Of a stretch of 64,000 nucleotides of DNA, positions 10,646-27,957 are shown piece after piece. The first letter of the stretch is position 1. Every line of letters begins with the position of its first letter. The notes beneath the pieces were generated by a model, which was given only the letters and a program-made list of their open reading frames with translations, did not search any database and was not told the DNA's origin. Location: positions 30,183 through 94,182 of the forward strand of contig CANQQT010000001.1 of NCBI GenBank assembly GCA_947626065.1, written 5' to 3'. Source of the DNA: an uncultured Clostridia bacterium (lineage in GTDB: Bacteria; Bacillota; Clostridia; Oscillospirales; CAG-272). The position numbers and the translations under genes were made by a program.

Positions 10646-11293
10646 CGGAGTTCCCGATTTCACCGATTTCCCGGGCATCCCAAAAGACCGGTTTTTCTCG
10701 CCCGTTTCTGAAAGCCCTTTACGGGGGCTTTCTTCCCCGTCCCCAAAGGCCAAACTTTTCCCGTTTTTTTCTTCGGTTTTTCAAAAAACCGGTTTTGCGG
10801 CGCACGCCCTGTCGACCGAAAGCCTGTTTTCTTCGACTTTTTCAAAAAGTCGATTTTTCAGCGCTTTCCCATCCGTCCGAAAGCCTGTTTTCTCCGATTT
10901 TTCAGCGCTTTCCTCTCCGTCCGAAAAGCCCGGATTTTCTCACTCTTTTCTCAAACGTCCTGCGGCCCGTCTTCCCGGCCCTTCCCTGCCGTTTCCAAAA
11001 GTGTCCTTTCATGGCCTTTCTTACCCATCGCCGAAAGCTCTCTTTTCGCTTCCTTCTCTCTCCTCTCCTGAAAAAGAAAACTTTTCATCAAATTTTTTCT
11101 TCTCCTTTCGACAGCGGTGCCCACAGCCTTCCCTTTTCCGCTCTTTCGGAAGCTTTTTCGGAAAGAAATCCGAAAAAACCCCGACAAAATTCTGTCGCCG
11201 AATTCTTTTCTCTGTGATATAGTTTAAACACCCCGCAAAATTCGGCGGGAAATAAGAGGAAAACCAAAAGCCGACGAAAGGACGAAAAAAATC

Positions 11294-12178
11294 ATGACCT
11301 GTACAAGCCGGATAAAAAAAGCTTTGGGAGCAAAAGGAAGAAAGGAATCCTACTACGGAAAAATTCAGTATCTGCCGACCGGGAGCATTCTCCCCAACCC
11401 CTCCCAACCGAGAAAAAATTTCAACGACGAAGCCCTCTTCCGTTTAGCGGAAAGCGTTCTGCGCTACGGCGTCCTCCAGCCGCTTTCCGTTCGATTCGCC
11501 AAGGGCCAGCCTCCGGATCCCTCCACGCCCCTCGCTTCCTGCCGTTTTGAGCTGATTGCCGGGGAACGCCGCCTCCGTGCCGCGAAAATCGCCGGGCTTC
11601 ACGAGGTACCCTGCATTCTCATCAACGCCGACGACAAAAAATCCGCCGAGCTCGCCTTGATTGAAAATCTCCAGCGGGAAGATTTGAATCTCTTCGAGCA
11701 AGCCGGAGCCATCAGCTCTCTTATCGACGTTTACGGCATGACGCAGGAGCAGGCGGCGCATCTGCTGGGAATGACGCAGGCGGCGGTCTCAAACAAGCTC
11801 CGCCTCCTGAAGCTCACCTCCTCCGAGCGGCGGCTCATCGTCGAGAACAGTCTCAGCGAGCGGCACGCGCGCGCCCTCTTGAAGCTCTCCGATCCGGATT
11901 TGCGGAGCGAAATTCTGCAAACCGTCGTCAAAAAGGGCCTGACCGTCGCGGGAACCGAGGCCCTGATCGACCGCTATCTTTCCAAAGACATCCCCGATTC
12001 CGCTGGGGAGGGATCGCGAAAAATGATTCTCAAGGATCTCCGGATCGTATACAATACGCTGGATCGGGCGCTGGACGTCATCGAGCAGGCAGGGATCGCC
12101 GTTGCCAAAGAGAAGCACGAAAGCGAGGACGCCGTCGAGCTGATTATTACGATCAGCAAGCGCCGGGAAGGCGCCTGA
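11294..12178 (+). CDS. ParB/Noc-family protein in the Noc position (between rsmG and soj)
   Basis: ParB N-terminal box (LIAGERRLRAAK), an HTH region (GMTQEQAAHLLGMTQAAVSNKLRLLKL) and a Noc-like C-terminus (KDLRIVYNTLDRAL). Confidence 0.8.
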   Translation: MTCTSRIKKALGAKGRKESYYGKIQYLPTGSILPNPSQPRKNFNDEALFRLAESVLRYGVLQPLSVRFAKGQPPDPSTPLASCRFELIAGERRLRAAKIAGLHEVPCILINADDKKSAELALIENLQREDLNLFEQAGAISSLIDVYGMTQEQAAHLLGMTQAAVSNKLRLLKLTSSERRLIVENSLSERHARALLKLSDPDLRSEILQTVVKKGLTVAGTEALIDRYLSKDIPDSAGEGSRKMILKDLRIVYNTLDRALDVIEQAGIAVAKEKHESEDAVELIITISKRREGA

Positions 12179-12250
12179 CGTCAAGCCTGACGTCAAGCCT
12201 AACGTCAAGCCTGATATCAAGCCACCCACCGTCAAGCCTAACGCCAAAAG
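12179..12250. repeat. 12-bp tandem repeat (CGTCAAGCCTRA), about 5 copies, starting at the stop codon of the ParB paralog
   Basis: Copies at 12179-12190, 12191-12202, 12203-12214, a degenerate copy from 12215, and 12230-12241. Confidence 0.85.
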
Positions 12251-12253
12251 AAA

Positions 12254-12728
12254 TGTTTCACGTGAAACTTTTTGCGCCATGTTGAGCAGGCTCCCCAACG
12301 CTGTGCCGAACCGGATTGTTTCACGTGAAACAGTTTTGTTCTCACCCTTGCGGGCTTCCTTTTGCGCACCCGTGTTGCATGAATTGTTTCACGCGAAACA
12401 TTTCCAGTGATTTTGCCCCGCGTGAGCATTTATCTGCCTGGGGCCTTTGTTCCACGCGAAGAATTCTTCCGCGCATTTTGTAGGACGGGCTTCTCTGATT
12501 CGGCGTTGCGCGGGTTGTTTCACGCGAAACATTTTTGTCCTCGCCCTTGTAGAGCTCCCTTTTGCGCACCCTTGTCGCATGAATTGTTTCACGTGAAACA
12601 TTTCCCCATGACTTTGCCCCACGCGAGCGCTTGCCTATCCGTCTCTTTTGTTTCGCGTGAAACATTTTCCTGTTATTTGCTCTCGTACACGCCGGTTGTC
12701 CCATGTCGCCTTTGTTTCACGTGAAACA
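12254..12728. repeat. parS: Array of eight parS (ParB-binding centromere) sites with 63-69 bp spacing
   Basis: Four sites match TGTTTCACGTGAAACA/T exactly, three carry one mismatch and one is degenerate. Per-site coordinates are given in the findings. Confidence 0.85.
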
Positions 12729-12817
12729 TTCGCCCTTTCGGCGAAAGCCCCCTCCCAGCCCCGTCGGCAACACATTTTTCTTTATTTTGTAAAAACTTTA
12801 TTATTTCCGCAGGGCTC

Positions 12818-12846
12818 TTGACTTTTCGAGGGAAAATTGCTATAAT
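12818..12846 (+). promoter_or_regulatory. Sigma-A type promoter for soj-spo0J (TTGACT-17-TATAAT)
   Basis: TTGACT at 12818-12823 and TATAAT at 12841-12846, with a 17-nt spacer. Confidence 0.7.
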
Positions 12847-12881: not shown

Positions 12882-13643
12882 GTGGGAAAAATCATTGTAT
12901 TTGCCAACCAAAAAGGCGGCGTGGGAAAGACGACCTCCGCCGTCAACGTCGCGGCCTCCGTCGGGGCAAAGGGAAAGCGCGTCCTTCTTGTCGATCTGGA
13001 TCCTCAGGGGAACACTTCCAGCGGAGTTGGCATCAACAAAAAGAATATGAAGCTCTCCACCTACGATGTGTTGATCGGCAGAAGCAGCGCGGAATCCTGC
13101 ATCGTTGAAACAGAATATAAAAACCTCTCCATCATTCCCTCCAACATTTCCCTGGCCGGAGCGGAATTTGAGCTCGTCAACTGCGAAAAGCGGGAGCACC
13201 GGCTGAAAAACGCCCTCGCGCTGGTTAAGGACAACTACGACTATCTCTTCATCGACTGTCCGCCTTCCCTCGGAATCCTCACCGTCAACGCCTTGGCGGC
13301 AAGCGACGGCGTGATCGTTCCGATGCAGTGCGAGTATTATTCGCTCGAAGGCCTGTCACAGCTCATGTCGACCATCAAGGCCTGCAAGCGCCTGTACAAC
13401 CCCGATTTGCAGATCCTCGGGATCCTGATTACCATGTACAACGGCCGTCTTAATCTTTCGATGCAGGTCATGGACGAGCTGAAAAAATATTACGCGGGCA
13501 AGCTCTTCAAAACCACCATTCTGCGGAACGTCCGTCTCAGCGAAGCGCCGAGCTACGGAATGCCGATTTTGTACTACGACAAGCACAGCAAAGGGGCCGA
13601 GGCTTATAACAACGTTTCCGACGAAATTATGGAACGGATGTAA
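12882..13643 (+). CDS. soj: Chromosome partitioning ATPase ParA/Soj
   Basis: Deviant Walker A (KGGVGKTT). The GTG start at 12882 lies 7 nt after AGGAGA and downstream of the -10. The ATG at 12849 would lie upstream of the predicted transcription start. Confidence 0.92.
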   Translation: MGKIIVFANQKGGVGKTTSAVNVAASVGAKGKRVLLVDLDPQGNTSSGVGINKKNMKLSTYDVLIGRSSAESCIVETEYKNLSIIPSNISLAGAEFELVNCEKREHRLKNALALVKDNYDYLFIDCPPSLGILTVNALAASDGVIVPMQCEYYSLEGLSQLMSTIKACKRLYNPDLQILGILITMYNGRLNLSMQVMDELKKYYAGKLFKTTILRNVRLSEAPSYGMPILYYDKHSKGAEAYNNVSDEIMERM

Positions 13644-13672: not shown

Positions 13673-14557
13673 ATGGCAAAACCGAAAAATACCGGACTGG
13701 GCAAGGGCCTTGACGCGATTTTCTACGAAAACAGCGCCGAGACCGGCGGGAACGTCACGATGCTCCGCCTGTCGGAGATCGAGCCGAACCCCGAACAGCC
13801 TCGCCACACCTTCGACACCGAAGCGCTGGCGCAGCTGGCCGACTCCATTTCCTCCCACGGCCTGATTCAGCCGATCGTCGTCCGCTCGGTGGGAACCGAC
13901 GGATATTATCAGATCGTCGCCGGGGAGCGCCGCTGGAGAGCCTCCAAAATGGCGGGGCTCACCGAGGTGCCCGTCATCATCATGGAAATGGACGACAAAA
14001 AGGCCGCGCAGGTGGCGCTGATTGAAAACGTACAGAGGGAAAACCTCAATCCGATGGAGGAGGCCGGCGCCTATCAGGCTCTCCTTTCGGAATACGGAAT
14101 GACGCAGGAGGAGGTTTCCAAACAAATCGGGAAAAGCCGAAGCGCCATCGCCAACACCCTTCGCCTTCTCGACCTTCCCTCCCCCGTCTGCGAGCTGGTG
14201 AGGAGCGGAAAGCTCTCCGCCGGTCACGCGCGCACCCTTCTCGGCCTGAAGGATCCCTCCAAAATCGAAGAGGCGGCGGCACTCTTCTCCCAGAAGAGCT
14301 ACTCCGTCCGAGAAGCGGAGGCCTACGTAAAAAGGCTGAACAAAGAAGCGATCACTCCGAAAAAGGAAGAGGACGAGCCGCCTCTCCCCGTCGATTATAC
14401 CGCGGAGCTGGCAAGAAAGATGACTTCCCGCATCGGCCACAAGGTTCAGATTCAAAAATCGGGAAAAATCCGCAAAATCGAAATCCAATTTTCAAGCGAT
14501 TCTGAGCTTGACGACATTGTCACCCGCCTTTGCGGGAATCATATCTTTGACGAATAA
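13673..14557 (+). CDS. spo0J: Chromosome partitioning protein ParB/Spo0J
   Basis: ParB boxes (QPRHTFD, IVAGERRWRASK), an HTH region and a C-terminal dimerisation segment. Confidence 0.92.
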   Translation: MAKPKNTGLGKGLDAIFYENSAETGGNVTMLRLSEIEPNPEQPRHTFDTEALAQLADSISSHGLIQPIVVRSVGTDGYYQIVAGERRWRASKMAGLTEVPVIIMEMDDKKAAQVALIENVQRENLNPMEEAGAYQALLSEYGMTQEEVSKQIGKSRSAIANTLRLLDLPSPVCELVRSGKLSAGHARTLLGLKDPSKIEEAAALFSQKSYSVREAEAYVKRLNKEAITPKKEEDEPPLPVDYTAELARKMTSRIGHKVQIQKSGKIRKIEIQFSSDSELDDIVTRLCGNHIFDE

Positions 14558-14574: not shown

Positions 14575-15858
14575 ATGCTGGATATCAAATACATTCGGGA
14601 AAATCCCGACGAGGTAATCGCCCGTCTTGCCTGCAAGGGACGGGACGCAAAAGAAGAAATTGCAAAAATTCTCTCCCTTGACGCCGAGCGCCGCGCCATT
14701 ATCGCGGAAAACGAGGCGCTGAAAGCGGAGCAGAATAAAACGAACAAGCTGATCCCACAATATAAGAAGGAAGGAAAGGACGTTGCCCCCATCTTTGCAC
14801 AGATGAAGGAGCTGGCCGCCAAAACCAAGGAAAACGACGAAAAGCTGAAAACCGTCGAGACGGCCTTCAACGAGCTGATGTACGCCCTTCCCAACCTGCC
14901 CGACCCCGACCTCAAGCCCGGCGGGAAGGAGAACAACGAGCCGCTCCGCTATTTCGGAGAGCCGCATCACTTCGATTTTGAGCCGAAAAATCACGTCGAT
15001 CTCTGCACAGACCTCGGCCTGATCGACTACAAGCGCGGGGCCAAGCTGGCGGGAAGCGGCTTCTGGATTTATTCCGGCGTCGGCGCCCGGCTGGAATGGG
15101 CGCTCCTCAATTATTTCATTCAGTTCCACATCGGCAACGGCTATGAGTTCATGCTGGTTCCGCATATGCTGGAATACGAATGCGGATTTACGGCGGGACA
15201 ATTCCCGAAATTCGCCGACGAGGTCTATAAAATCGCCAATCCCACCGACGACCGGGTTCATTATATGCTTCCGACAGCAGAGGCCGCCCTCGTCTCTCTC
15301 CACAGAAACGAAATTCTGAACGAATCCGAGCTCCCGAAGAAATACATCAGCTATACCCCCTGTTTCCGCCGGGAAGCGGGAAGCTACCGTTCCGACGAGA
15401 GAGGAATGGTGAGAGGCCATCAGTTCAACAAGGTGGAAATGGTGCAGTATACCCTGCCGGAGAAATCCGACGAGGCCTTTGAGGAGCTGGTCGGAAGAGC
15501 GGAGGATCTTGTCAAGGGCCTCGGCTTCCACTTCCGCACCGTCAAGCTCGCCGCGGAGGACTGCTCCGCCTCAATGGCCCGTACCTACGACATTGAAATT
15601 CAGATTCCTTCGATGAACGGCTACAAAGAAGTCAGCTCCGTCTCCAACGCCCGCGACTATCAGGCGCGGCGCGGTCAGATGCGGGTGCGCAGAGAGGACG
15701 GAAAAATCGAATATCTCCACACCCTCAACGGCTCCGGCCTTGCCACCTCCCGGATTCTTCCGGCGCTTGTCGAACAGAATCAGAACGCCGACGGCTCGGT
15801 CAATGTTCCCGACGTACTGAAACCCTTCCTCGGAATCGACGTCATAAGAAAGCCGTAA
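14575..15858 (+). CDS. serS: Seryl-tRNA synthetase
   Basis: N-terminal coiled-coil arm and class II motifs (FRREAGS, GSGLATSR). Confidence 0.95.
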   Translation: MLDIKYIRENPDEVIARLACKGRDAKEEIAKILSLDAERRAIIAENEALKAEQNKTNKLIPQYKKEGKDVAPIFAQMKELAAKTKENDEKLKTVETAFNELMYALPNLPDPDLKPGGKENNEPLRYFGEPHHFDFEPKNHVDLCTDLGLIDYKRGAKLAGSGFWIYSGVGARLEWALLNYFIQFHIGNGYEFMLVPHMLEYECGFTAGQFPKFADEVYKIANPTDDRVHYMLPTAEAALVSLHRNEILNESELPKKYISYTPCFRREAGSYRSDERGMVRGHQFNKVEMVQYTLPEKSDEAFEELVGRAEDLVKGLGFHFRTVKLAAEDCSASMARTYDIEIQIPSMNGYKEVSSVSNARDYQARRGQMRVRREDGKIEYLHTLNGSGLATSRILPALVEQNQNADGSVNVPDVLKPFLGIDVIRKP

Positions 15859-18926: not shown

Positions 18927-21440
18927 TTATTCGTTCTCTTCCGCAGAGTCGCCTGCGTCCTCCACAAGAGAAGGCTCTTCGGCCTCCTCTCCGGTTTCCT
19001 CTTCTTCCTCCTCGGAAACCACGGCCAAACCGGCGACGTGGGCTTCCCCGGCGCGCATGACAATGACGCCAGACGCCGAACGGCTATAAAGAGGAATCTC
19101 GCTGACGCGGGTCCGAATCACGACGCCCTCGTCGGTCGTCAAGAGAATATCGTCGGTCTCAGACACCGCGGCAATCGCCGCGACCCGCCCGGTCTTTTCG
19201 TTGACAAGGTGGCAACGCATCCCTTTGCCTCCGCGATTGTGGGCGGCAAATTCCTCAAAGTCGGTCCTCTTTCCGAAACCGTTTTCGGTCACGGTGAGGA
19301 GCTTCTTTTCGGGATCCACAAGGGTAATTCCGGCGACAAAATCTCCCTTTTCGGGCCGGATGCCGATCACGCCGCGGGAATTTCTCCCCGTCGGGGTAAC
19401 CGTTTTCAGCGGGAAGCGAACCGCGTTTCCTTTTTCGGTGGCGATGAGAAGCTCATCCCCGTCGGAGGCCTTCAGAACGTAGGACAGCTCGTCTCCCTCG
19501 TCAAGCGTAATGGCGCGCTTTCCGCCCTTTCTCTGATAGGCAAATTCCGAAATGGCGGTTCTCTTGACAATGCCGTTTCTCGTAATCATCGTCAGCGTTC
19601 CGTCGGAGTCAAAGTCGTCAAGGGAGACAAGCGCCGTGATTTTCTCTCCATCCTCAAGCTCGATAACGTTGACGGCCGCCGTTCCCTTGGCAGTCCGGGA
19701 GCTTTCGGGAATCAGATACGCCTTCTTCACGTGAATCTTTCCACGGTTGGTGAACATGAGGAGGAAGGAATGGGAATGGACGGCGACGACCTGATCGACG
19801 ATGTCTTCCTCCTTGGTCGTCATGCCGATGACGCCCTTTCCACCTCTTCTCTGCGCGGAATAGACGTTTGAAGGAAGCCTCTTGATGTACCCGCTCTTGG
19901 TGAGGGTAATCACGCAGGTGTGGCGCTCAATCAAATCCTCGTAGACGATTTCGTTTGCGGAGGCGACGATTTCGGTTCGGCGGGGGTTATCGTATTTGCG
20001 CTTGATTTCCGACAGATCGTTTCTTATGATATCGCGGATCCGCGACTCGTTTCTCAAAATGTCCTCAAGGTCCTCAATCAAGGCGTAGAGCTTGGCCAGC
20101 TCGTCCTCCACCTTCTGCCTCTCAAGGCCGGTGAGCTTTCCGAGAGTCATCTCGACGATGGCCTGCGCCTGATCCTCCGAGAGGGAGAAGCGGGTGCAAA
20201 GCGTCTGCTTCGCGGCGGGAATCGACTCGGCGGTTTTCATGATTTCGACGATTTCGTCGATGTTGTCGATCGCGATCTTGTAGCCCTCCAAAATATGGGC
20301 TCTTGCCTTCGCTTTGGATAAGTCGAAAACCGTCCGGTTGCGGATAACGCTCTCCTGATGCTCGATGTAATAGTCGAGAACCTGCGGCAGGGAGAGAATC
20401 TTCGGCTCCCCGCCGACAATGGCAAGCATATTGATGGAGCAGGTATCCTCCAGCTGAGAATATTTGTAAAGCTGATTCAGAAGAACCGTTCCGTTCGCGT
20501 CCCGGCGGTAGTCGAAAACGATGCGGATTCCGTTTTTGTTCGATTCGTCCCGGACGTCGACGATGCCGTCGATCTTTTTCTCCTTGACAAGGTTGGCGAT
20601 GGCCTCAATCAGCATACTCTTGTTCACCATATAGGGAATTTCGGTGACAATAATCTGCCGCTTGTCCTCGTCTATTTCGGCCTTGGCGCGTACCATGACG
20701 CGGCCCTTGCCGGTCGTGTAGGCCTCAAGGATTCCGTTGACGCCGTAAATGGTCCCCCGGGTCGGGAAATCGGGGCCCTTTATATATTCCATCAGCTGAG
20801 GAACCGTGCAGTCGGGATGATCCATCCGGAAAATCGTCGCGTCGCAGACCTCCCCGAGGTTGTGAGGAGGAACGTTGGTGGCCATACCGACGGCGATGCC
20901 CACCGCGCCGTTGACAAGGAAATTCGGGAACCGGGAGGGAAGAACCGACGGCTCGTCCCGGGTGTTGTCGAAGTTCTTGTCCATCTTGACGACGTTCTTT
21001 TCCATATCCCGCATCATCTCGTCGGAGAGCCGCGACAGCCGCGCCTCGGTGTAACGGTAGGCGGCGGGGGGGTCTCCGTCGATGGAGCCGAAGTTTCCCT
21101 TTCCCTCGACAAGAGGATAGCGATAGGAGAAATCCTGCGCCATTCTCACCATCGTTCCGTAGACGGCGGCGTCCCCGTGGGGATGATAGCGGCCCAGCAC
21201 ATCGCCGACGGTCGTCGCCGATTTGCGGAAAGGATTGTCGTGGGTCAGATTGTCCTCATACATGGTATAAAGGATTCTTCTCTGCCCCGGCTTCATCCCG
21301 TCCCGGACGTCCGGCAGCGCGCGGGAAATGATGACGCTCATGGAGTACTGCATGAAGGAATTTTTGACTTCCTTTTCCATTCCTACGTCAACGATTTTCT
21401 GATCCGGAAATTCGTAACTGACTTTTTCTTCTCTGCTCAT
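18927..21440 (-). CDS. gyrA: DNA gyrase subunit A
   Basis: AAMRYTE-type active-site region ([10 protein letters not shown]), the QRRGGKG GyrA box and an acidic tail. The start is placed at ATG 21440 (MSREEK...); the track ORF extends 17 codons further. Confidence 0.95.
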
Positions 21441-21507
21441 TCCTGTCCCTTTCTTTTTGGCGGCAAACGCCAAGCGTTTTCCTTCCGCCAAAGCTTATGC
21501 GTACCGT

Positions 21508-21830
21508 TTTTCCACAGGTTTTTCCCCATGGTTTTCCACAGACTTTTCCCTGTGGAAAATTTCTTTGATCTCTTTTTTGTTTTCCCTTTTAAGCGGGAAA
21601 AATCGATTTTTCCACAAAAGACTGTGGATAACTTTCGGCTTTTTGTGGAAAAGCTTCCTTCGCTTTTCCGTTTGTCTTCCCTTTTCCCCTAACTTTTCCA
21701 CAAGGCGCGTTCCTTGCCTTTCGGCTCCATGCCTGTCCTTTTTGAGGGGAAGAGTAGGGTTTTCCACAGAATTTTTCACTCTGTGGAAAGAGGATTTTTC
21801 AACGAAAATCAGATATCCAGATTTTCCACA
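21508..21830. promoter_or_regulatory. Cluster of 10 DnaA boxes in the gyrB-gyrA spacer (the last lies inside the gyrB 3' end)
   Basis: Six TTTTCCACA boxes, three TGTGGAAAA/G boxes, and one perfect TGTGGATAA at 21623-21631. Full coordinates are given in the findings. Confidence 0.75.
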
Positions 21831-23758
21831 TAGCGGGCGTTCTGCGCGATAAATTCCCGACGTGGCTCCACGTCGTCCCCCATCAGGAGGGAGAACATTT
21901 CGTCGCAGGCCATCGCGTCCTCCACCGTGACACGCAGAAGCGTCCGGCGGTCGGGATCCATCGTCGTCTCCCAAAGCTGTTCGGGATTCATTTCGCCAAG
22001 ACCTTTGTAGCGGTCGACGCGGATCTTATCGCTTCCTCCGAATTTCTCGATGCAGACGTCCCTTTCCTCGTCGGTAAAGGCGTAGAGCTCCTCCCCTTTT
22101 CCCGATTTCCGGTTGATCTTATAAAGCGGCGGCTGGGCAAGATAAACGTGCCCGTCCTCGATCAGCTTTCTCATATGGCGGAAGAAGAAGGTGAGAATCA
22201 GAATTCGGATATGGGAGCCGTCGACGTCGGCATCCGCCATGATGATGATTTTCCCGTAGCGGAGCTTTTCGATGTCAAATTCCGTTCCGATGCCGCACCC
22301 GAGAGCCTGAATGATGGGAATCAGCGACAGGTTGGAATAGACCTTGTCGGCCCTTGTCTTTTCGACGTTCAGAACCTTTCCACGAAGGGGAAGAATCGCC
22401 TGAAATTTGGAGTTTCTCCCCATTTTGGCGGAGCCTCCCGCGGAATCTCCCTCGACAAGGAAGAGCTCCGTCACGTCGACGTTCTTTTCCTGACAGTCGG
22501 CGAGCTTTCCGGGAAGGGCGGAGCCTCCGCCGAGAACGCTCTTTCTCGTCTGCTCCCGGGCCTTTCGGGCGGCCTCCCGCGCACGGGAAGCGGTGATGGC
22601 CTTTTCAAGAATGACCTTGGTCACCGCGGGATGCTCTTCAAAATATTCTCCCAGCTTTTCGCTGACAAGATTGTCGACAAAGACGCGGATGTCGGAATTT
22701 CCGAGCTTTCCCTTCGTCTGTCCCTCAAACTGCGCGTCGCGAAGCTTGACGCTGATCACAGCCGTCAGCCCCTCGCGGGTGTCCTCTCCCGAGAGGTTTT
22801 TGTCGTCCTTCTTCAAAATTCCCTTTTGCCTTGCATAGTCGTTGATGACCTTGGTAAGAGCGGTTTTGAAGCCGGTTTCATGGGTTCCCCCCTCGGGGGT
22901 AATGATGTTGTTGGCGAAGGACATGATCGTTTCGTCGTATTTGTCTGTATACTGAAAAGCGATTTCCGCCGTCGTGAATTCCTTCTGCGCCTTCATATAG
23001 ATGACTTCGTCGTTTAAAAAGCCGCAGTGCTTCAGCTTGTTCAAATGCTCGACAAAGCTGACGATTCCCCCTTCGTAGTGAAGAACCGTCTCACGGACGC
23101 TGTTTTCTTCCTCGTCCCCGTCCTTTTCTTCAAGTTTCCTTTCGTCCCGAAGAACGATGCGGACGCCGGGATTCAAAAACGCCTGCTCACGCATCCGATT
23201 TAGAAGTATCGAATAATCGAAGGTCGTCTCCTCAAAAATTTCCTTGTCGGGCAGAAAACGGACGTAAAGTCCCCGTTTGTCGGTCTTTCCCACGTAGGTA
23301 AAGCGTTCGTCGGGCTTGCCGCGCTTAAAGCTTCCTTTATAGGTCTCCCCGTTGTAGGTGTCCTCGTAAATCAGCCACTCCGAAAGGGCGTTGACAACGG
23401 AGGCGCCGACTCCGTGAAGGCCTCCGGAAATGTTGTATCCGCTCCCGCCGAATTTTCCTCCCGCGTGAAGAATCGTAAAGACGACCTCGGGCGTCGGAAT
23501 CTTCATTTTGTGGTGAATGGCGGTCGGAATGCCGCGCCCGTTGTCCTGAACGGAAACGCTCCCATCCTCGTGAAGCGTGATGACGATGTTGTCACACTCC
23601 CCAGCCAGCGCCTCGTCGATGGAGTTGTCGACGATTTCGTAAATCAGATGATGCAGTCCGTGGGAGCTGACGTCTCCGATGTACATTCCGGGACGTTTTC
23701 TTACCGCTTCCAGCCCCTCCAACACCTGTATTTGATTTTCGTCGTAAATCTGCGTCAT
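21809..23758 (-). CDS. gyrB: DNA gyrase subunit B
   Basis: GHKL ATPase N-terminus (LEAVRKRPGMYIG), Toprim motifs (EGDSAGG, PLRGK) and DADVDGSHI. Confidence 0.97.
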   Translation of the reverse strand: MTQIYDENQIQVLEGLEAVRKRPGMYIGDVSSHGLHHLIYEIVDNSIDEALAGECDNIVITLHEDGSVSVQDNGRGIPTAIHHKMKIPTPEVVFTILHAGGKFGGSGYNISGGLHGVGASVVNALSEWLIYEDTYNGETYKGSFKRGKPDERFTYVGKTDKRGLYVRFLPDKEIFEETTFDYSILLNRMREQAFLNPGVRIVLRDERKLEEKDGDEEENSVRETVLHYEGGIVSFVEHLNKLKHCGFLNDEVIYMKAQKEFTTAEIAFQYTDKYDETIMSFANNIITPEGGTHETGFKTALTKVINDYARQKGILKKDDKNLSGEDTREGLTAVISVKLRDAQFEGQTKGKLGNSDIRVFVDNLVSEKLGEYFEEHPAVTKVILEKAITASRAREAARKAREQTRKSVLGGGSALPGKLADCQEKNVDVTELFLVEGDSAGGSAKMGRNSKFQAILPLRGKVLNVEKTRADKVYSNLSLIPIIQALGCGIGTEFDIEKLRYGKIIIMADADVDGSHIRILILTFFFRHMRKLIEDGHVYLAQPPLYKINRKSGKGEELYAFTDEERDVCIEKFGGSDKIRVDRYKGLGEMNPEQLWETTMDPDRRTLLRVTVEDAMACDEMFSLLMGDDVEPRREFIAQNARYVENLDI

Positions 23759-24036: not shown

Positions 24037-25116
24037 CTATTCTGCGGCGCTCAGTTTTCCGCCTCTTACAAAATAAAGCTTGGCCTTGGTAGAAATTTTT
24101 TCGCAGGAGGTGATGATGACCTGACGGCCGGAAATTCCGTGAAGGAGATACTCCCGGCGCCCAGAGTCAAGCTCGGAAAGAATATCGTCGAAAAGGAATA
24201 CCGGGTATTCTCCGTCCTTTTCCTTGGATATTTCCCCCTCGGCAAGCTTCATCGCAAGGGCAAGCGAACGCTGCTGTCCCTGAGAGGCAAAGGCTCTCGC
24301 TTCTTTTCCGCAGTGCTCAATTTTGATATCGTCCTTGTGAATCCCGTATAAAGTCGTACCGAATTTCAGCTCCCGCTCGGTATTGGAGGTAAGGAGCTTA
24401 AAATATTCCTCTTCGGTTTTATAAGAGGTATAAGAGAGGGAGGCACTTTCCTTCCCGCCCGTCATATCGGAAAGAAGAGAGGAAACAAGAACATTCAGCT
24501 TTTCCACGTAGACGCTTCTCTTTTCGGAGAGAAGAGCCGCCTCTTTGGCTAGTCGTTCCGACCAGATTTCCGCCTGAGAAAGGAAGATGGAATCGTCGTG
24601 CTTTTCCCTGCTCAGACGGATCAAAGCGTTTCTCTGGGCGAGAAGCCGGCTATAGAGCTGTAAAACCTTTAAATACAGAGGGTCGATCTGAGAAATGGCG
24701 GTATCAAGAAAGCGCCTTCTCACCGCGGGACCGTCCTTGACAAGGGAGAGATGCTCGGGACAGAAGAGGACGGCGCGGAAATTTCCCACAACCTCGGAAA
24801 GCTTCGTCAAAAAGACGCCGTTTTTTTTGCAGATTCGCTTTCCGCTTTCGGGAATCCATTTTAAGGACATCAAGCAGTCGCGCTTTCCGTCAAAATAGGT
24901 CATGGAAATTTCGGAAAAGGGCGCGCCGAAGCGCACAAGCTCGCTTTCGTGAAGGGTACGAAAGCTTCTTCCCCCGGCAAAGACAAAGATGCCTTCCAAA
25001 GTATTGGTCTTTCCCTGCCCGTTTTCGCCGTTCAGAACGGTGACTCCTTCGGAGGGGATCAGCTCCGCTTCCTCAAGATTTCGAAAATTTCGATAGACAA
25101 CCTTCCGGCAGATCAT
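24037..25116 (-). CDS. recF: DNA replication and repair protein RecF
   Basis: Walker A GENGQGKTN, signature SQGQQRS, Walker B LFDDILSELD. Confidence 0.95.
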   Translation of the reverse strand: MICRKVVYRNFRNLEEAELIPSEGVTVLNGENGQGKTNTLEGIFVFAGGRSFRTLHESELVRFGAPFSEISMTYFDGKRDCLMSLKWIPESGKRICKKNGVFLTKLSEVVGNFRAVLFCPEHLSLVKDGPAVRRRFLDTAISQIDPLYLKVLQLYSRLLAQRNALIRLSREKHDDSIFLSQAEIWSERLAKEAALLSEKRSVYVEKLNVLVSSLLSDMTGGKESASLSYTSYKTEEEYFKLLTSNTERELKFGTTLYGIHKDDIKIEHCGKEARAFASQGQQRSLALAMKLAEGEISKEKDGEYPVFLFDDILSELDSGRREYLLHGISGRQVIITSCEKISTKAKLYFVRGGKLSAAE

Positions 25117-25120
25117 GGAT

Positions 25121-26272
25121 TCAATGGTTGGAAAGAATGCGAACCGGAAGAATCAGAAGAAGAAAGCTTCTACCCTCTTCCTTCTCGCTCGGTTCAATCG
25201 TCATGCCCATTAAGGAAGAGGTAAGGGAAAGCTTGATCTTTTCGCAGTCACAGACGCGGACGGCCTCGCAAAGGGCGCGGCAGTCAAAGCCGATTTCAAT
25301 CGGCTCCCCTTCTTGAAGAACGGAAAATTCGTCGTTGAAGCGTCCGGTGATGGAGGAGCAGGAAAGAAAGAGGGTGCCTTCTTCAAATTTGCAGATGACG
25401 GGGCTTTTGATCTGTCCCTGCTGTTTGTCCTCGGTGACAAGAAGAGCCCTTTCAAGAGCCGTCAGAAAGTCTCTTGTGTCCATGGTGACAAAAATCTTCG
25501 ACGATTTGGGAAGAAAGCGTTCGTAATCGAGAGGCGTGGCCTCAATCAGACGGGTGAAAAGGGTAAATCCTCCTACGTAGAAGACGACGTGCTTTCTCGC
25601 CAGCCGAACCGTCACCTTTTCGTCGCTGTCGTCAATGAATTTCAAAAGCTCGGAAACCGTTTTTCCGGGAACGATGATGTTGAAGAGATTGTCCTCCCGC
25701 TGAGGCTTCATCTCATCGCTCTTTTCTCTGAAAAGAGCCATTCGCTTCCCGTCGCAGGAGACAGCGGTCAGCGTGTTGTCGGCGACAATCAGATTTAAGC
25801 CGTTAAATTCGGGACGGGGACTGTCGGAGGCGATGGTCACAAGGGTTTTCTGAAATACGGTTTTTAAGGCCCCTTGAGAAACGGTAATTTCGTTTTCTCC
25901 CGTCAGGTCGGGAAGATTCGGAAATTCGTTCGCGTTCAAAGCGCCAAGCTCAAAACGGACGGTTCCTCCGGAAATGTGGGCTCGGTAGGTCTTTTCGTCA
26001 ACCTCAATGACAAGCTCTCCCTCCGGCATGGAACGGAGAATTTGAAGAAGACGGAAGGAATTGATGACGGCGGCTCCCTGCTCGATAACCTTGCAGGAGA
26101 AAGAGGACTGAAAGCCCTTTTCAAGGTCAAAGGCCGTCAGGTCACAGGAATTCTCGCTTGTAGCGCTGAAGAGAATTCCTTCTGTTGAGGCAATGGTATT
26201 TTTGTTTGAAGCAAAGCCTGCGGAGGGAAGAGCTGCGGTGAGAAGGTCGTTTTTTTCAACAATGAGTTTCAT
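25121..26272 (-). CDS. dnaN: DNA polymerase III beta sliding clamp
   Basis: 383 aa, with the typical N-terminus (MKLIVEKNDLL) and a position immediately downstream of dnaA. Confidence 0.95.
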   Translation of the reverse strand: MKLIVEKNDLLTAALPSAGFASNKNTIASTEGILFSATSENSCDLTAFDLEKGFQSSFSCKVIEQGAAVINSFRLLQILRSMPEGELVIEVDEKTYRAHISGGTVRFELGALNANEFPNLPDLTGENEITVSQGALKTVFQKTLVTIASDSPRPEFNGLNLIVADNTLTAVSCDGKRMALFREKSDEMKPQREDNLFNIIVPGKTVSELLKFIDDSDEKVTVRLARKHVVFYVGGFTLFTRLIEATPLDYERFLPKSSKIFVTMDTRDFLTALERALLVTEDKQQGQIKSPVICKFEEGTLFLSCSSITGRFNDEFSVLQEGEPIEIGFDCRALCEAVRVCDCEKIKLSLTSSLMGMTIEPSEKEEGRSFLLLILPVRILSNH

Positions 26273-26284
26273 GTCGGCTCCTTT

Positions 26285-26516
26285 CGGATGAGAAAAAAAT
26301 TTTCGCGGGAAAAAGAGAAAGAGAATAGATATTTATAGTCGTAAGTAGTAGGGCCTGTGGAAAATGGGGAAAGAGGAAAAAAGGGCGCGGTGACGGGACA
26401 AGCCGGGAAAAATTCTCAATTTTTTGCTGTGGACAGGCTGAGGAAAAAGGTTGAGAAAAAGGCTTGAAAAGGAGCTGTTGAAAACCTGTGGAGAAAAGCT
26501 TGAGACTTTTTCCACT
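26285..26516. other. oriC: oriC core in the dnaA-dnaN spacer: AT-rich tract, DnaA-trio-like triplets, GC cluster and 4 DnaA boxes
   Basis: AT-rich tract at about 26285-26342. AAG TAG TAG at 26343-26351 and GGCC at 26352-26355. Boxes TGTGGAAAA 26356-26364, TGTGGACAG 26428-26436, TGTGGAGAA 26487-26495 and TTTTCCACT 26508-26516. Confidence 0.65.
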
Positions 26517-26544
26517 TTTCACTTTTGAAAGGAATAAAGATTTT

Positions 26545-27957
26545 TTATTCCTGACGAATGGAACGGATTAAATCGTTGAGCTCCGTTTCAAACTCCGGGT
26601 CGGAGGCCATTCTCTTTTCCACCGTGTCGATGGAATTGATGATGGTGGTGTGATCGCGGTTGAATTCCTTTCCGATGGCGGGAAGGGAGCGGTCGGTCAG
26701 CTTTTTGATGATGTAGACGGCGACGTGACGGGCCGTGGCGATGTTGCTTGTCCGCTTTTTGCTCTTGATGTCCTCCACGGGGATGTTGTAGTGGGAAGAA
26801 ACCGAGTGGAGAATTTTGTCTATGGTGACGCTGACGGGCTCAGAGCCGACGATTTTGTCGGAGAGACAGCGCACAGCGAGGTCGAGGGTGATGTCGGCGC
26901 CGGTCAGCATACTCTGCGCACCGATTTTTTTCACGGCGCCTTCCAGCTGACGGACGTTGCTCTTTAAATTTTCCGCAATGTAGGTCATCACGTCATCGGG
27001 GACGGTGATGCCGAGGGCGGAGGCCTTCAATTTGATGATGGCAATTCGGAGCTCAAGGTCGGGTGGCTCGATGTCGGCGGAAAGGCCGGACTCAAAGCGG
27101 GAGCGGAGACGGTCCTCAAGGAGCTTGATGTCGCGGGGAGGACGGTCGGAAGTCAGAATAATCTGGCGGTTGTGCTCGTAAAGGTCGTTGAAGGTGTGGA
27201 AAAATTCCTCCTGCGTGGCCGGTCGGCCGGCGATGAACTGAATGTCGTCGATGAGAAGAACGTCGGATTTTCGGTATTTCTCTCGAAATTCCGAATTCAG
27301 ATTCTTGCTGATCGAATCGATCATCTGATTGGTGAATTCCTCTCCCTTGACGTAGACCACCTTGTAGTCGGGAAAATTCTTTTTTATACGCTCGGTGATG
27401 GCGTAGAGAAGATGAGTTTTTCCGAGTCCGGAGGGGCCGTAGATGAAGAGAGGATTGTATTGCCGGGCGGGGTGAGTAGCCACCGCGAGGGCCGCGGCGT
27501 GGGCAAATTTGTTGGAGTTTCCTACAACAAAATTTTCAAAGGTGTATTCCGAAAAGGCGGCGGGAACGGAGGCGCGGTTCAGAACCTTCGCTGAGCCGAC
27601 GGTGGAGTAAAAGTCGGTTTCCGGATTGATTTTCCTGTCGTTCTTCTCTACCTCCACCTTCATTTTTTCGGTGATTTCCTCCTCCGATTCAAGAGAGCGG
27701 ACAGAGACGGACACGGGAAAGCCGAGAACCTGTGCGAGGGAAGAGGAGATTTTGTCCAAAAACCGTTTGGTGATGATGTCCCGCTTGAAATTGCTTTTGG
27801 CGAGAAAAACGGCGGTATCCTCGGTAAGGATCGAGAGCTTGAGGTCGGAAAACCAAAGCCTTAAGGAGGTCTCGTCGAGATCGTTCTGATTTTTCATTTT
27901 TTCCAGTGTTTGAGACCAGATCTCATCAAAAGGAGAAACGTCGGAAAAAGAAGTCAT
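26545..27957 (-). CDS. dnaA: Chromosomal replication initiator protein DnaA
   Basis: AAA+ Walker A GPSGLGKTHL, LLIDDIQF, and the domain IV signature (HTTIINS). Confidence 0.97.
   Translation of the reverse strand: MTSFSDVSPFDEIWSQTLEKMKNQNDLDETSLRLWFSDLKLSILTEDTAVFLAKSNFKRDIITKRFLDKISSSLAQVLGFPVSVSVRSLESEEEITEKMKVEVEKNDRKINPETDFYSTVGSAKVLNRASVPAAFSEYTFENFVVGNSNKFAHAAALAVATHPARQYNPLFIYGPSGLGKTHLLYAITERIKKNFPDYKVVYVKGEEFTNQMIDSISKNLNSEFREKYRKSDVLLIDDIQFIAGRPATQEEFFHTFNDLYEHNRQIILTSDRPPRDIKLLEDRLRSRFESGLSADIEPPDLELRIAIIKLKASALGITVPDDVMTYIAENLKSNVRQLEGAVKKIGAQSMLTGADITLDLAVRCLSDKIVGSEPVSVTIDKILHSVSSHYNIPVEDIKSKKRTSNIATARHVAVYIIKKLTDRSLPAIGKEFNRDHTTIINSIDTVEKRMASDPEFETELNDLIRSIRQE

Follow-up and report, generated by a model that had tools for sequence, protein, structure and literature searches.

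In light of the two genes of the ParB family that surround a run of short palindromes in the genome of an uncultured Clostridia bacterium, we became interested in the question whether these palindromes serve as a chromosomal centromere, as an operator of the adjacent genes or as a partition element of plasmid type. The locus is contained in a stretch of 64,000 nucleotides (contig CANQQT010000001.1), hereafter referred to as the window, in which the gene of a noc-like ParB paralog is followed by soj (parA) and spo0J (parB). The palindromes, eight sites of parS type, reside in the spacer between the noc-like gene and soj. This array very probably constitutes an origin-proximal chromosomal centromere, as seven of its sites are close to the consensus, its surroundings are those of a replication origin, a Spo0J with specificity residues of the parS type is encoded alongside and orthologous sites are found at the same position in relatives.

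The parS cluster and its chromosomal setting

In a mismatch-tolerant search, we identified seven 16-mers that deviate by no more than one position from the canonical parS sequence TGTTTCACGTGAAACA, and an eighth, degenerate one (TGTTCCACGCGAAGAA) with four mismatches (Table 1). Compared to the parS palindrome TGTTNCACGTGAAACA, the array likewise contains seven 16-mers with at most one mismatch and one with four. Together they span 475 bp (12254-12728), with start-to-start distances of 63, 68, 63, 68, 69, 64 and 64 bp. By chance, 0.14 matches with up to three mismatches would be expected in the whole window, and a number of seven was reached in none of 100 shuffled sequences. No further parS with three or fewer mismatches is located elsewhere in the 64 kb, including the coding region of spo0J. 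An earlier note made from the sequence alone, which had listed eight 16-mers of the canonical parS consensus at a spacing of 63-69 bp and had seen none inside spo0J, was accurate in each of these points. The degenerate fourth site is probably weak or decayed.

The array is not an artefact of assembly, since the same eight-site structure is found in the Logan assembly L001, which is 99.9% identical over 2.9 kb including the whole array, and in L215, a different strain that originates from another sample, shows 98.2% identity with 48 mismatches in 2.66 kb and whose eight sites are separated by 62, 68, 63, 68, 69, 64 and 64 bp.

The genomic context of the array is that of a chromosomal origin. 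The dnaA-dnaN-recF-gyrB-gyrA cluster is found at a distance of 6-15 kb, the cumulative GC skew reaches its minimum near 24 kb of the window (at a resolution of 2 kb) and DnaA boxes, of which the window contains 19 compared to an expected number of 4.8, are overrepresented at 21.5-21.8 kb and at 26.3-26.5 kb. Based on the turn of the skew, the enrichment of the boxes and the gene map, we assign the array to the chromosome, at a distance of 9-15 kb from the origin region. Among the spacers of the gene cluster, the one between gyrB and gyrA (21508-21830) harbors nine copies of TTTTCCACA and one perfect TTATCCACA on both strands within about 320 bp, and the one between dnaA and dnaN (26272-26545) only two DnaA boxes; the former may represent oriC itself or a cluster of boxes that titrate DnaA.

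Conserved position and lineage-specific expansion

For a comparison with related loci, we used 14 fetched sequences (L002-L011, L132-L134 and L041, the latter from a genome scan), whose noc-like paralogs share 58-67% of identical residues with the protein of the window and 46% in one more distant locus. As even the nearest homologues of the paralog do not exceed this range, the window represents a lineage of uncultured Clostridia-type bacteria that stands isolated. The order noc-like, soj, spo0J, serS is kept in all 14 loci wherever the contig reaches. In each of them, the spacer between the noc-like gene and soj contains two to three parS sites, almost all of them perfect, and no parS was detected outside this spacer in the 9-13 kb fetched per relative. 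Apart from the sites, these spacers, which range from 139 to about 700 bp, cannot be aligned. The small cluster at this position is hence considered ancestral and the eight sites of the window as a lineage-specific expansion. With respect to the question raised in the earlier note, whether the array and its copy number are conserved in the orthologous spacer, the position of the sites is maintained, but their number is not. In one clade of relatives, the second and the third parS are separated by an insert of about 450 bp (L002, 3680-4110; L004-L006, 7035-7470), which is common to three assemblies and does not contain a called gene with a Pfam domain.

Within the array, a tandem duplication is apparent from the alignment of the segments 12311-12440 and 12511-12640, which are 79.5% identical. 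When comparing spacers at the corresponding offset, the one between sites 2 and 3 is 83% identical to that between sites 5 and 6, a value that stands against 50 ± 3.5% and a maximum of 62% in shuffled sequences, whereas the identity drops to a marginal 65% for the spacers 3-4 and 6-7 and to the chance level of 52% for the spacers 4-5 and 7-8. The sites thus follow one another with a regular period of 63-69 bp, but homology of spacers is confined to the first of these pairs and, at its margin, to the second, with the others being at chance level. The period of 199-200 bp is real, and the part of the duplication that can be demonstrated by alignment covers only about 135-165 bp carrying two sites. 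The amplified unit of about 200 bp described in the earlier note is therefore borne out in its tandem arrangement and period, but neither in its identity, which had been estimated as roughly 85%, nor in its extent of three sites, as homology is evident for about two.

In the sequence of events that we propose, the lineage would have inherited two to three parS sites in the spacer between the noc-like gene and soj, a tandem duplication with the repeat period of 199-200 bp would have led to eight sites, and the spacers of the copies would then have drifted apart, with the 16-mers being retained.

Predicted reader and competing functions of the array

The distinction between parS and the Noc binding site (NBS) is governed by four residues, R173, T179, A184 and G201 in ParB, which are Q, K, K and R in Noc (Jalal et al., 2020, PMC7383237), and introduction of the Noc residues switches the preference of Caulobacter ParB from parS to NBS (PMC7383237). 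In Spo0J of the window, the respective region (GKS-R-SAIAN-T-LRLL-D-...SA-G-HAR), which aligns with the ParB structures from B. subtilis, Thermus and Myxococcus, displays the combination R-T-D-G. In the noc-like paralog (GMT-Q-AAVSN-K-LRLL-K-...SE-R-HAR, contained in the sequence ..GMTQAAVSNKLRLLKL..SERHAR..), the same positions read Q-K-K-R. This protein aligns residue for residue with the Noc structures from B. subtilis and Geobacillus (7OL9, 7NFU), and in an alignment of 13 members of its family the Q, the first K and the R are invariant with the third position being either K or R. From these residues, we predict that Spo0J reads the array and that the noc-like paralog prefers NBS-like DNA. 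The N-terminus of the paralog (MTCTSRIKKALGAKGRK), where relatives contain FFKK or LIKRAL motifs in the alignment, is suggestive only of an amphipathic membrane-targeting helix of the Noc type.

Following established ParB biology, Spo0J dimers would nucleate on each parS, bind cytidine triphosphate (CTP), close to a clamp and slide outward, which would free the site for reloading. The presence of eight sites within such a short segment would raise the loading flux from this one locus or make it more robust, leading to one partition complex that would extend over the noc-like gene, soj, spo0J, serS and beyond, stimulate Soj and load SMC. The concentrated ParB-loading locus that had been predicted in the earlier note finds support in this canonical cluster of parS sites between the paralog and soj.

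Several points weigh against this reading. Binding of Spo0J, clamp loading and a dosage effect at the array are processes that we infer, and the scan for parS spans 64 kb of the genome, with additional sites possibly located elsewhere. Most species contain several origin-proximal parS, any single one of which was found to be sufficient in experiments with other species (reviewed in PMC7022226), and the extra copies may be functionally neutral rather than adaptive. Given four rare variants and one site with four mismatches, the effective sites may also be fewer than eight. Finally, the differences between the window and L215, which affect 1 of 128 positions in the sites, 7 of 347 in the spacers and 0 of 153 in the promoter region, are in the expected direction for selection on the sites, although this comparison is far too small to prove it.

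Among the alternatives, the one that fares best, although we consider it unlikely, assigns the array a second role as operator or enhancer of soj-spo0J, where ParB bound upstream would feed back on transcription and the expansion would retune the levels of Soj and Spo0J. The earlier note had recognized the consensus promoter TTGACT-17-TATAAT and the location of the array just 5' of it, between the paralog in the position of Noc and soj; both are confirmed, with a TG-extended -10 as additional feature and a distance of 89 bp from the last parS to the -35. This promoter is highly conserved: in 10 of 10 loci, TTGAC(T/A), a 17-bp spacer and TATAAT are found at a distance of 62-67 bp from the GTG codon where soj starts. 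In all 10 relatives examined, parS is located upstream of it, with 14-72 bp between the last site and the -35. A parS directly upstream of soj is also common in more distant noc-like/soj/spo0J loci, which usually carry one to four such sites as found in a metagenome scan with the paralog family, and binding of P. aeruginosa ParB to the intergenic sites parS3 and parS4 represses adjacent genes (reviewed in PMC7022226). Conversely, neither in the window nor in any of these 10 relatives does a parS overlap with the -35, the spacer or the -10, and the distance to the promoter is variable. Moreover, Soj does not contain an operator-binding domain, and loss of Spo0J in B. subtilis left the expression of genes neighboring parS unchanged (PMC7022226). 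The proximity may merely reflect that the spacer is the non-coding DNA nearest to the par genes. In view of the missing promoter overlap, the domain composition of Soj and the result from B. subtilis, autoregulation of the soj promoter is possible but not favoured.

Further-reaching and still less probable is the idea of the centromere as a feedback element, where ParB-CTP clamps loaded near the invariant soj promoter would set the transcription of soj-spo0J. The expansion would then retune the dosage of ParB and Soj or offset sites weakened by GC drift, and centromere copy number would in general be coupled to the expression of the par genes. If true, this feedback and the dense parA-adjacent arrays found across phyla would together indicate a coupling that is general and has not yet been studied.

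A third alternative concerns the variation in the core of the sites, four of which share a transition in one half-site, either T to C at position 10 or its mirror image A to G at position 7. In the earlier note, CACGTG and CACGCG/CGCGTG had been regarded as two classes that the paralogs might read differently. In this alternative, Spo0J would act on the former and the upstream paralog on the latter. The proposal draws on one rare change being common to half of the sites and on the two ParB-family genes flanking the array. The rarity itself is evident from a pattern that freely allowed the change, where G at position 7 or C at position 10 was found in 21 of 628 array sites (3.3%) among the at least 120 loci listed from a survey described below, and predicted parS sites with G at position 7 are likewise noted as rare in PMC3899335. 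However, NBS differs from parS by an A at position 1 and a C at position 6, whereas the variants of the array have kept G at position 1 and contain G instead of C at position 6. As the varied base is also not that of NBS, the variants are not steps toward this motif, which is the DNA that the Noc-type residues Q-K-(K/R)-R of the paralog family would be expected to select. Relatives contain almost exclusively perfect CACGTG cores and site 7 is perfect in L215. The variants also postdate the duplication, since it is not the same copy that varies in the homologous pairs 2/5 and 3/6, and the GC content of the spacer, which is 0.50 compared to 0.34-0.46 in relatives, fits a drift from T to C. Two functional core classes are thus not borne out and, with only Spo0J carrying residues of the parS type, a division of the array between the paralogs is very unlikely; in the simplest reading, the core variants would be tolerated AT to GC drift at one half-site position rather than a second recognition class.

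With respect to such variants in other lineages, 20 of the 21 rare sites among the matches listed are found in L042, L021, L079 and L045/L091, which are metagenome-assembled genomes (MAGs) of Patescibacteria, Alphaproteobacteria and Phycisphaeraceae, and the symmetric core CGCGCG is present in ten sites among the matches listed. This distribution hints at lineage-specific parS variants that have possibly co-evolved with their ParB.

Least credible of all is an origin as dispersed repeat, as partition cassette of a mobile element or integrated plasmid or as assembly artefact, for which the repetitive structure and the likewise iterated palindromes of plasmid centromeres such as F sopC could be invoked, as copies of the unit are absent elsewhere in the window (where BLAST matches beyond the array are 12-17 bp long and at chance level), synteny with serS is kept in relatives and gyrA is near in the window and in L010, three independent assemblies share the eight-site structure, the 64-kb window is devoid of matches to transfer RNA (tRNA) and Rfam models, and no integrase, transposase or recombinase family was found among the 30 long open reading frames (ORFs) scanned against Pfam, a selection that does not screen the window exhaustively for mobile-element genes.

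Dense parS arrays in other lineages and minor features of the locus

The frequency of sites in the array raises the question of how unusual such an arrangement is. In a survey of one genome per GTDB species, we searched for three parS sites (with the core CRCGYG) at a spacing of 40-70 bp. The resulting figures are lower bounds and not frequencies, and the loci were obtained as fixed blocks of 8 kb, which severed many arrays from their neighboring genes. At least 120 loci with three or more tightly spaced parS were found in many phyla, including Lachnospiraceae, Oscillospiraceae, Ruminococcus, Blautia, Selenomonadaceae, Bacilli, Streptococcus, Actinomycetota with Streptomyces, Alpha-, Gamma- and Deltaproteobacteria, Bdellovibrionales, Treponema, Planctomycetes, Acidobacteriota and Patescibacteria. 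Clusters of 8-23 sites account for 18 of the at least 120 loci listed, and in about 60 of the loci listed the 8-kb block also contains a gene of ParA/Soj, which is often an immediate neighbor of the array; most of these roughly 60 blocks contain a ParB gene as well. The three large arrays whose neighbors were checked (L074, L023 and L122) are all located amid chromosomal origin-region or housekeeping genes. The array with the largest number of sites (L105), whose period equals that of F-plasmid sopC, adjoins chromosomal-looking aminotransferase and ilvD genes, and neither ParA nor ParB was detected in its 8-kb block.

In this respect, the array of the window represents a known type of element that recurs elsewhere, with a high number of copies, and no plasmid-like oddity. 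The layout that the earlier note had described as atypical and plasmid-like was overstated, given the two to three sites at the same position in relatives, the number of dense loci in the survey and the precedent of Myxococcus xanthus, where 22-24 parS sites form a 3-kb cluster upstream of parAB (PMC3899335, PMC3778016). With the clusters of M. xanthus, Pseudomonas, Corynebacterium and Caulobacter, the array shares the consensus of a 16-bp palindrome and the proximity to the origin (PMC3899335, PMC3778016, PMC7022226), the vicinity to parAB and redundant sites that form one ParB loading zone. Unlike in M. xanthus, with 22 sites in about 3 kb, its sites are denser and more regular (with a spacing of about 66 bp within 475 bp), and it differs from clusters of this type by its position directly between the noc-like gene and the soj promoter and by its visible origin in a recent tandem duplication of an ancestral cluster of two to three sites. 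Closer in appearance are the arrays at L063, L016, L122 and L074, with consensus parS at short regular spacing in intergenic segments of the origin region and often just 5' of soj, which are distinguished by independent origins, other periods and non-homologous spacers and for which we found no experimental study in the literature searched.

The resemblance to plasmid centromeres is confined to the iteration of ParB-family palindromes in one short tract adjoining the par operon. In the F plasmid, sopC is built from 12 tandem repeats of 43 bp, each of which contains an inverted repeat of 16 bp. The parS sites of pSM19035 are centromere and operator repeats of type Ib (PMC9499535). In contrast to these plasmid arrays, the sites of the window are found on a chromosome in conserved synteny with serS, gyrA/B and dnaA/N, and they are separated by heterogeneous spacers of 63-69 bp, which are mostly unalignable and appear not to form exact unit repeats. 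The array is located upstream of parA and not, as sopC, downstream of parB, and its parS sites are, unlike plasmid operators, clear of the promoter, with the Soj protein being devoid of the N-terminal domain that would bind an operator.

The closest parallel in gene order is the noc-soj-spo0J region of B. subtilis, with whose Noc the paralog shares Q-K-K-R and the CTP motif (PMC7383237), and an ORI gene cluster including noc has been inferred for the ancestor of the Firmicutes (PMC8136486). Different from B. subtilis, whose parS sites are scattered across the origin region and include one within spo0J, all sites detected in the window are in the spacer between the noc-like gene and soj. The paralog also differs from B. 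subtilis Noc in its score against the NCBIfam Noc profile TIGR04285, which it covers from position 1 to 255 of 255 with 262 bits, below the cut-off of 315. A significant match to NBS is absent from the window, with one hit to TATTTCCCGGGAAATA at three mismatches in 64 kb, in line with a chance expectation of 0.6, in a window that is too short to be informative on this question.

For the window itself, the array would mark the centromere and confirm a standard noc-like/soj/spo0J origin module, with little wider import. Many uncultured lineages independently show dense regular arrays of 8-23 parS, often just 5' of parA, whereas model organisms, with few and dispersed sites, suggest otherwise. 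These natural arrays and the clean expansion from two to three to eight sites offer comparative material on parS copy number, with which questions concerning ParB-CTP loading flux, the size of the partition complex, SMC loading and the expression of the par operon could be addressed.

Table 1. Features of the locus and large parS arrays from the survey. Positions refer to the window, except for locus L105. Mismatches are relative to TGTTTCACGTGAAACA.
Feature	Position	Strand	Description
noc-like ParB-family paralog	11294-12178	+	Pfam: ParB_N + HTH_ParB; GERRLRA motif
parS site 1	12254-12269	no strand	TGTTTCACGTGAAACT, 1 mismatch
Tandem duplication	12311-12640	+	period 199-200 bp; segments 12311-12440 / 12511-12640; homology fades in third monomer
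parS site 2	12317-12332	no strand	perfect TGTTTCACGTGAAACA; opens duplicated unit A
parS site 3	12385-12400	no strand	TGTTTCACGCGAAACA, position 10 T>C
parS site 4, degenerate	12448-12463	no strand	TGTTCCACGCGAAGAA, 4 mismatches; identical sequence in strain L215
parS site 5	12516-12531	no strand	TGTTTCACGCGAAACA; opens duplicated unit B; homolog of site 2
parS site 6	12585-12600	no strand	perfect; homolog of site 3
parS site 7	12649-12664	no strand	TGTTTCGCGTGAAACA, position 7 A>G; perfect CACGTG in sister strain L215
parS site 8	12713-12728	no strand	perfect; 89 bp upstream of soj promoter -35
soj-spo0J promoter	12818-12846	+	TTGACT-17-TATAAT, TG-extended -10
soj (parA)	12882-13643	+	253 aa, GTG start, short chromosomal-type ParA ATPase
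spo0J (parB)	13673-14557	+	ParB_N + HTH_ParB + ParB_C; GERRWRA CTP motif; N-terminal LGKGLDAI motif
serS	14575-15858	+	Pfam scan
gyrA	18927-21491	-	Pfam scan
gyrB	21809-23758	-	Pfam scan
recF	24037-25116	-	Pfam scan
dnaN	25121-26272	-	Pfam scan
dnaA	26545-27957	-	Pfam scan
L105, Deltaproteobacteria MAG JAISMU010000045.1	34-994		23 parS, exact 43-bp period
L074, Clostridiales			12 parS, 41-42 bp; between mnmE and mnmG-rsmG (Pfam scan of neighbours)
L093			12 parS, 42-65 bp (mostly 59-65)
L023			10 parS, 55 bp; between dnaX and gyrA (Pfam scan of neighbours)
L063, Ruminococcus			9 parS, 57 bp; last one 168 bp before soj
L083			9 parS; before soj
L122, Blautia			9 parS, 70 bp; between argS and soj (Pfam scan of neighbours)
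L016, Lachnospiraceae			8 parS, 46 bp; before soj

Directly past site 8, the sequence contains a hairpin (TTCGCC-ctttc-GGCGAA, 12731-12747), which is not a canonical intrinsic terminator of the noc-like gene since it is followed by a C-rich and not a T-rich tract. A structured RNA or a small ORF within the array was considered and rejected, as there is no match to Rfam or tRNA models, the repeat accounts for the overlapping ORFs and relatives do not have a conserved ORF called at this position. At 10894-10903, about 400 bp before the noc-like gene begins, a small indel or a rearrangement distinguishes both L001 and L215 from the window, and the BLAST alignments break there with an overlap of 10 bp. 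At the other end of this gene, its stop codon is spanned by a 12-bp tandem repeat of GCCTGACGTCAA with 4.2 copies at 12173-12223 (extending to about 12245), in which each unit contains an in-frame stop and whose +1 frame encodes PDVKPDVKPNVKPDIKPPTVKPNAK. The paralogs of some relatives (P0009, P0028 and P0119) carry long C-terminal tails of low complexity, and the repeat may have been left behind by such a tail after a frameshift, or may be a repeat in its own right that contains TGACGTCA.

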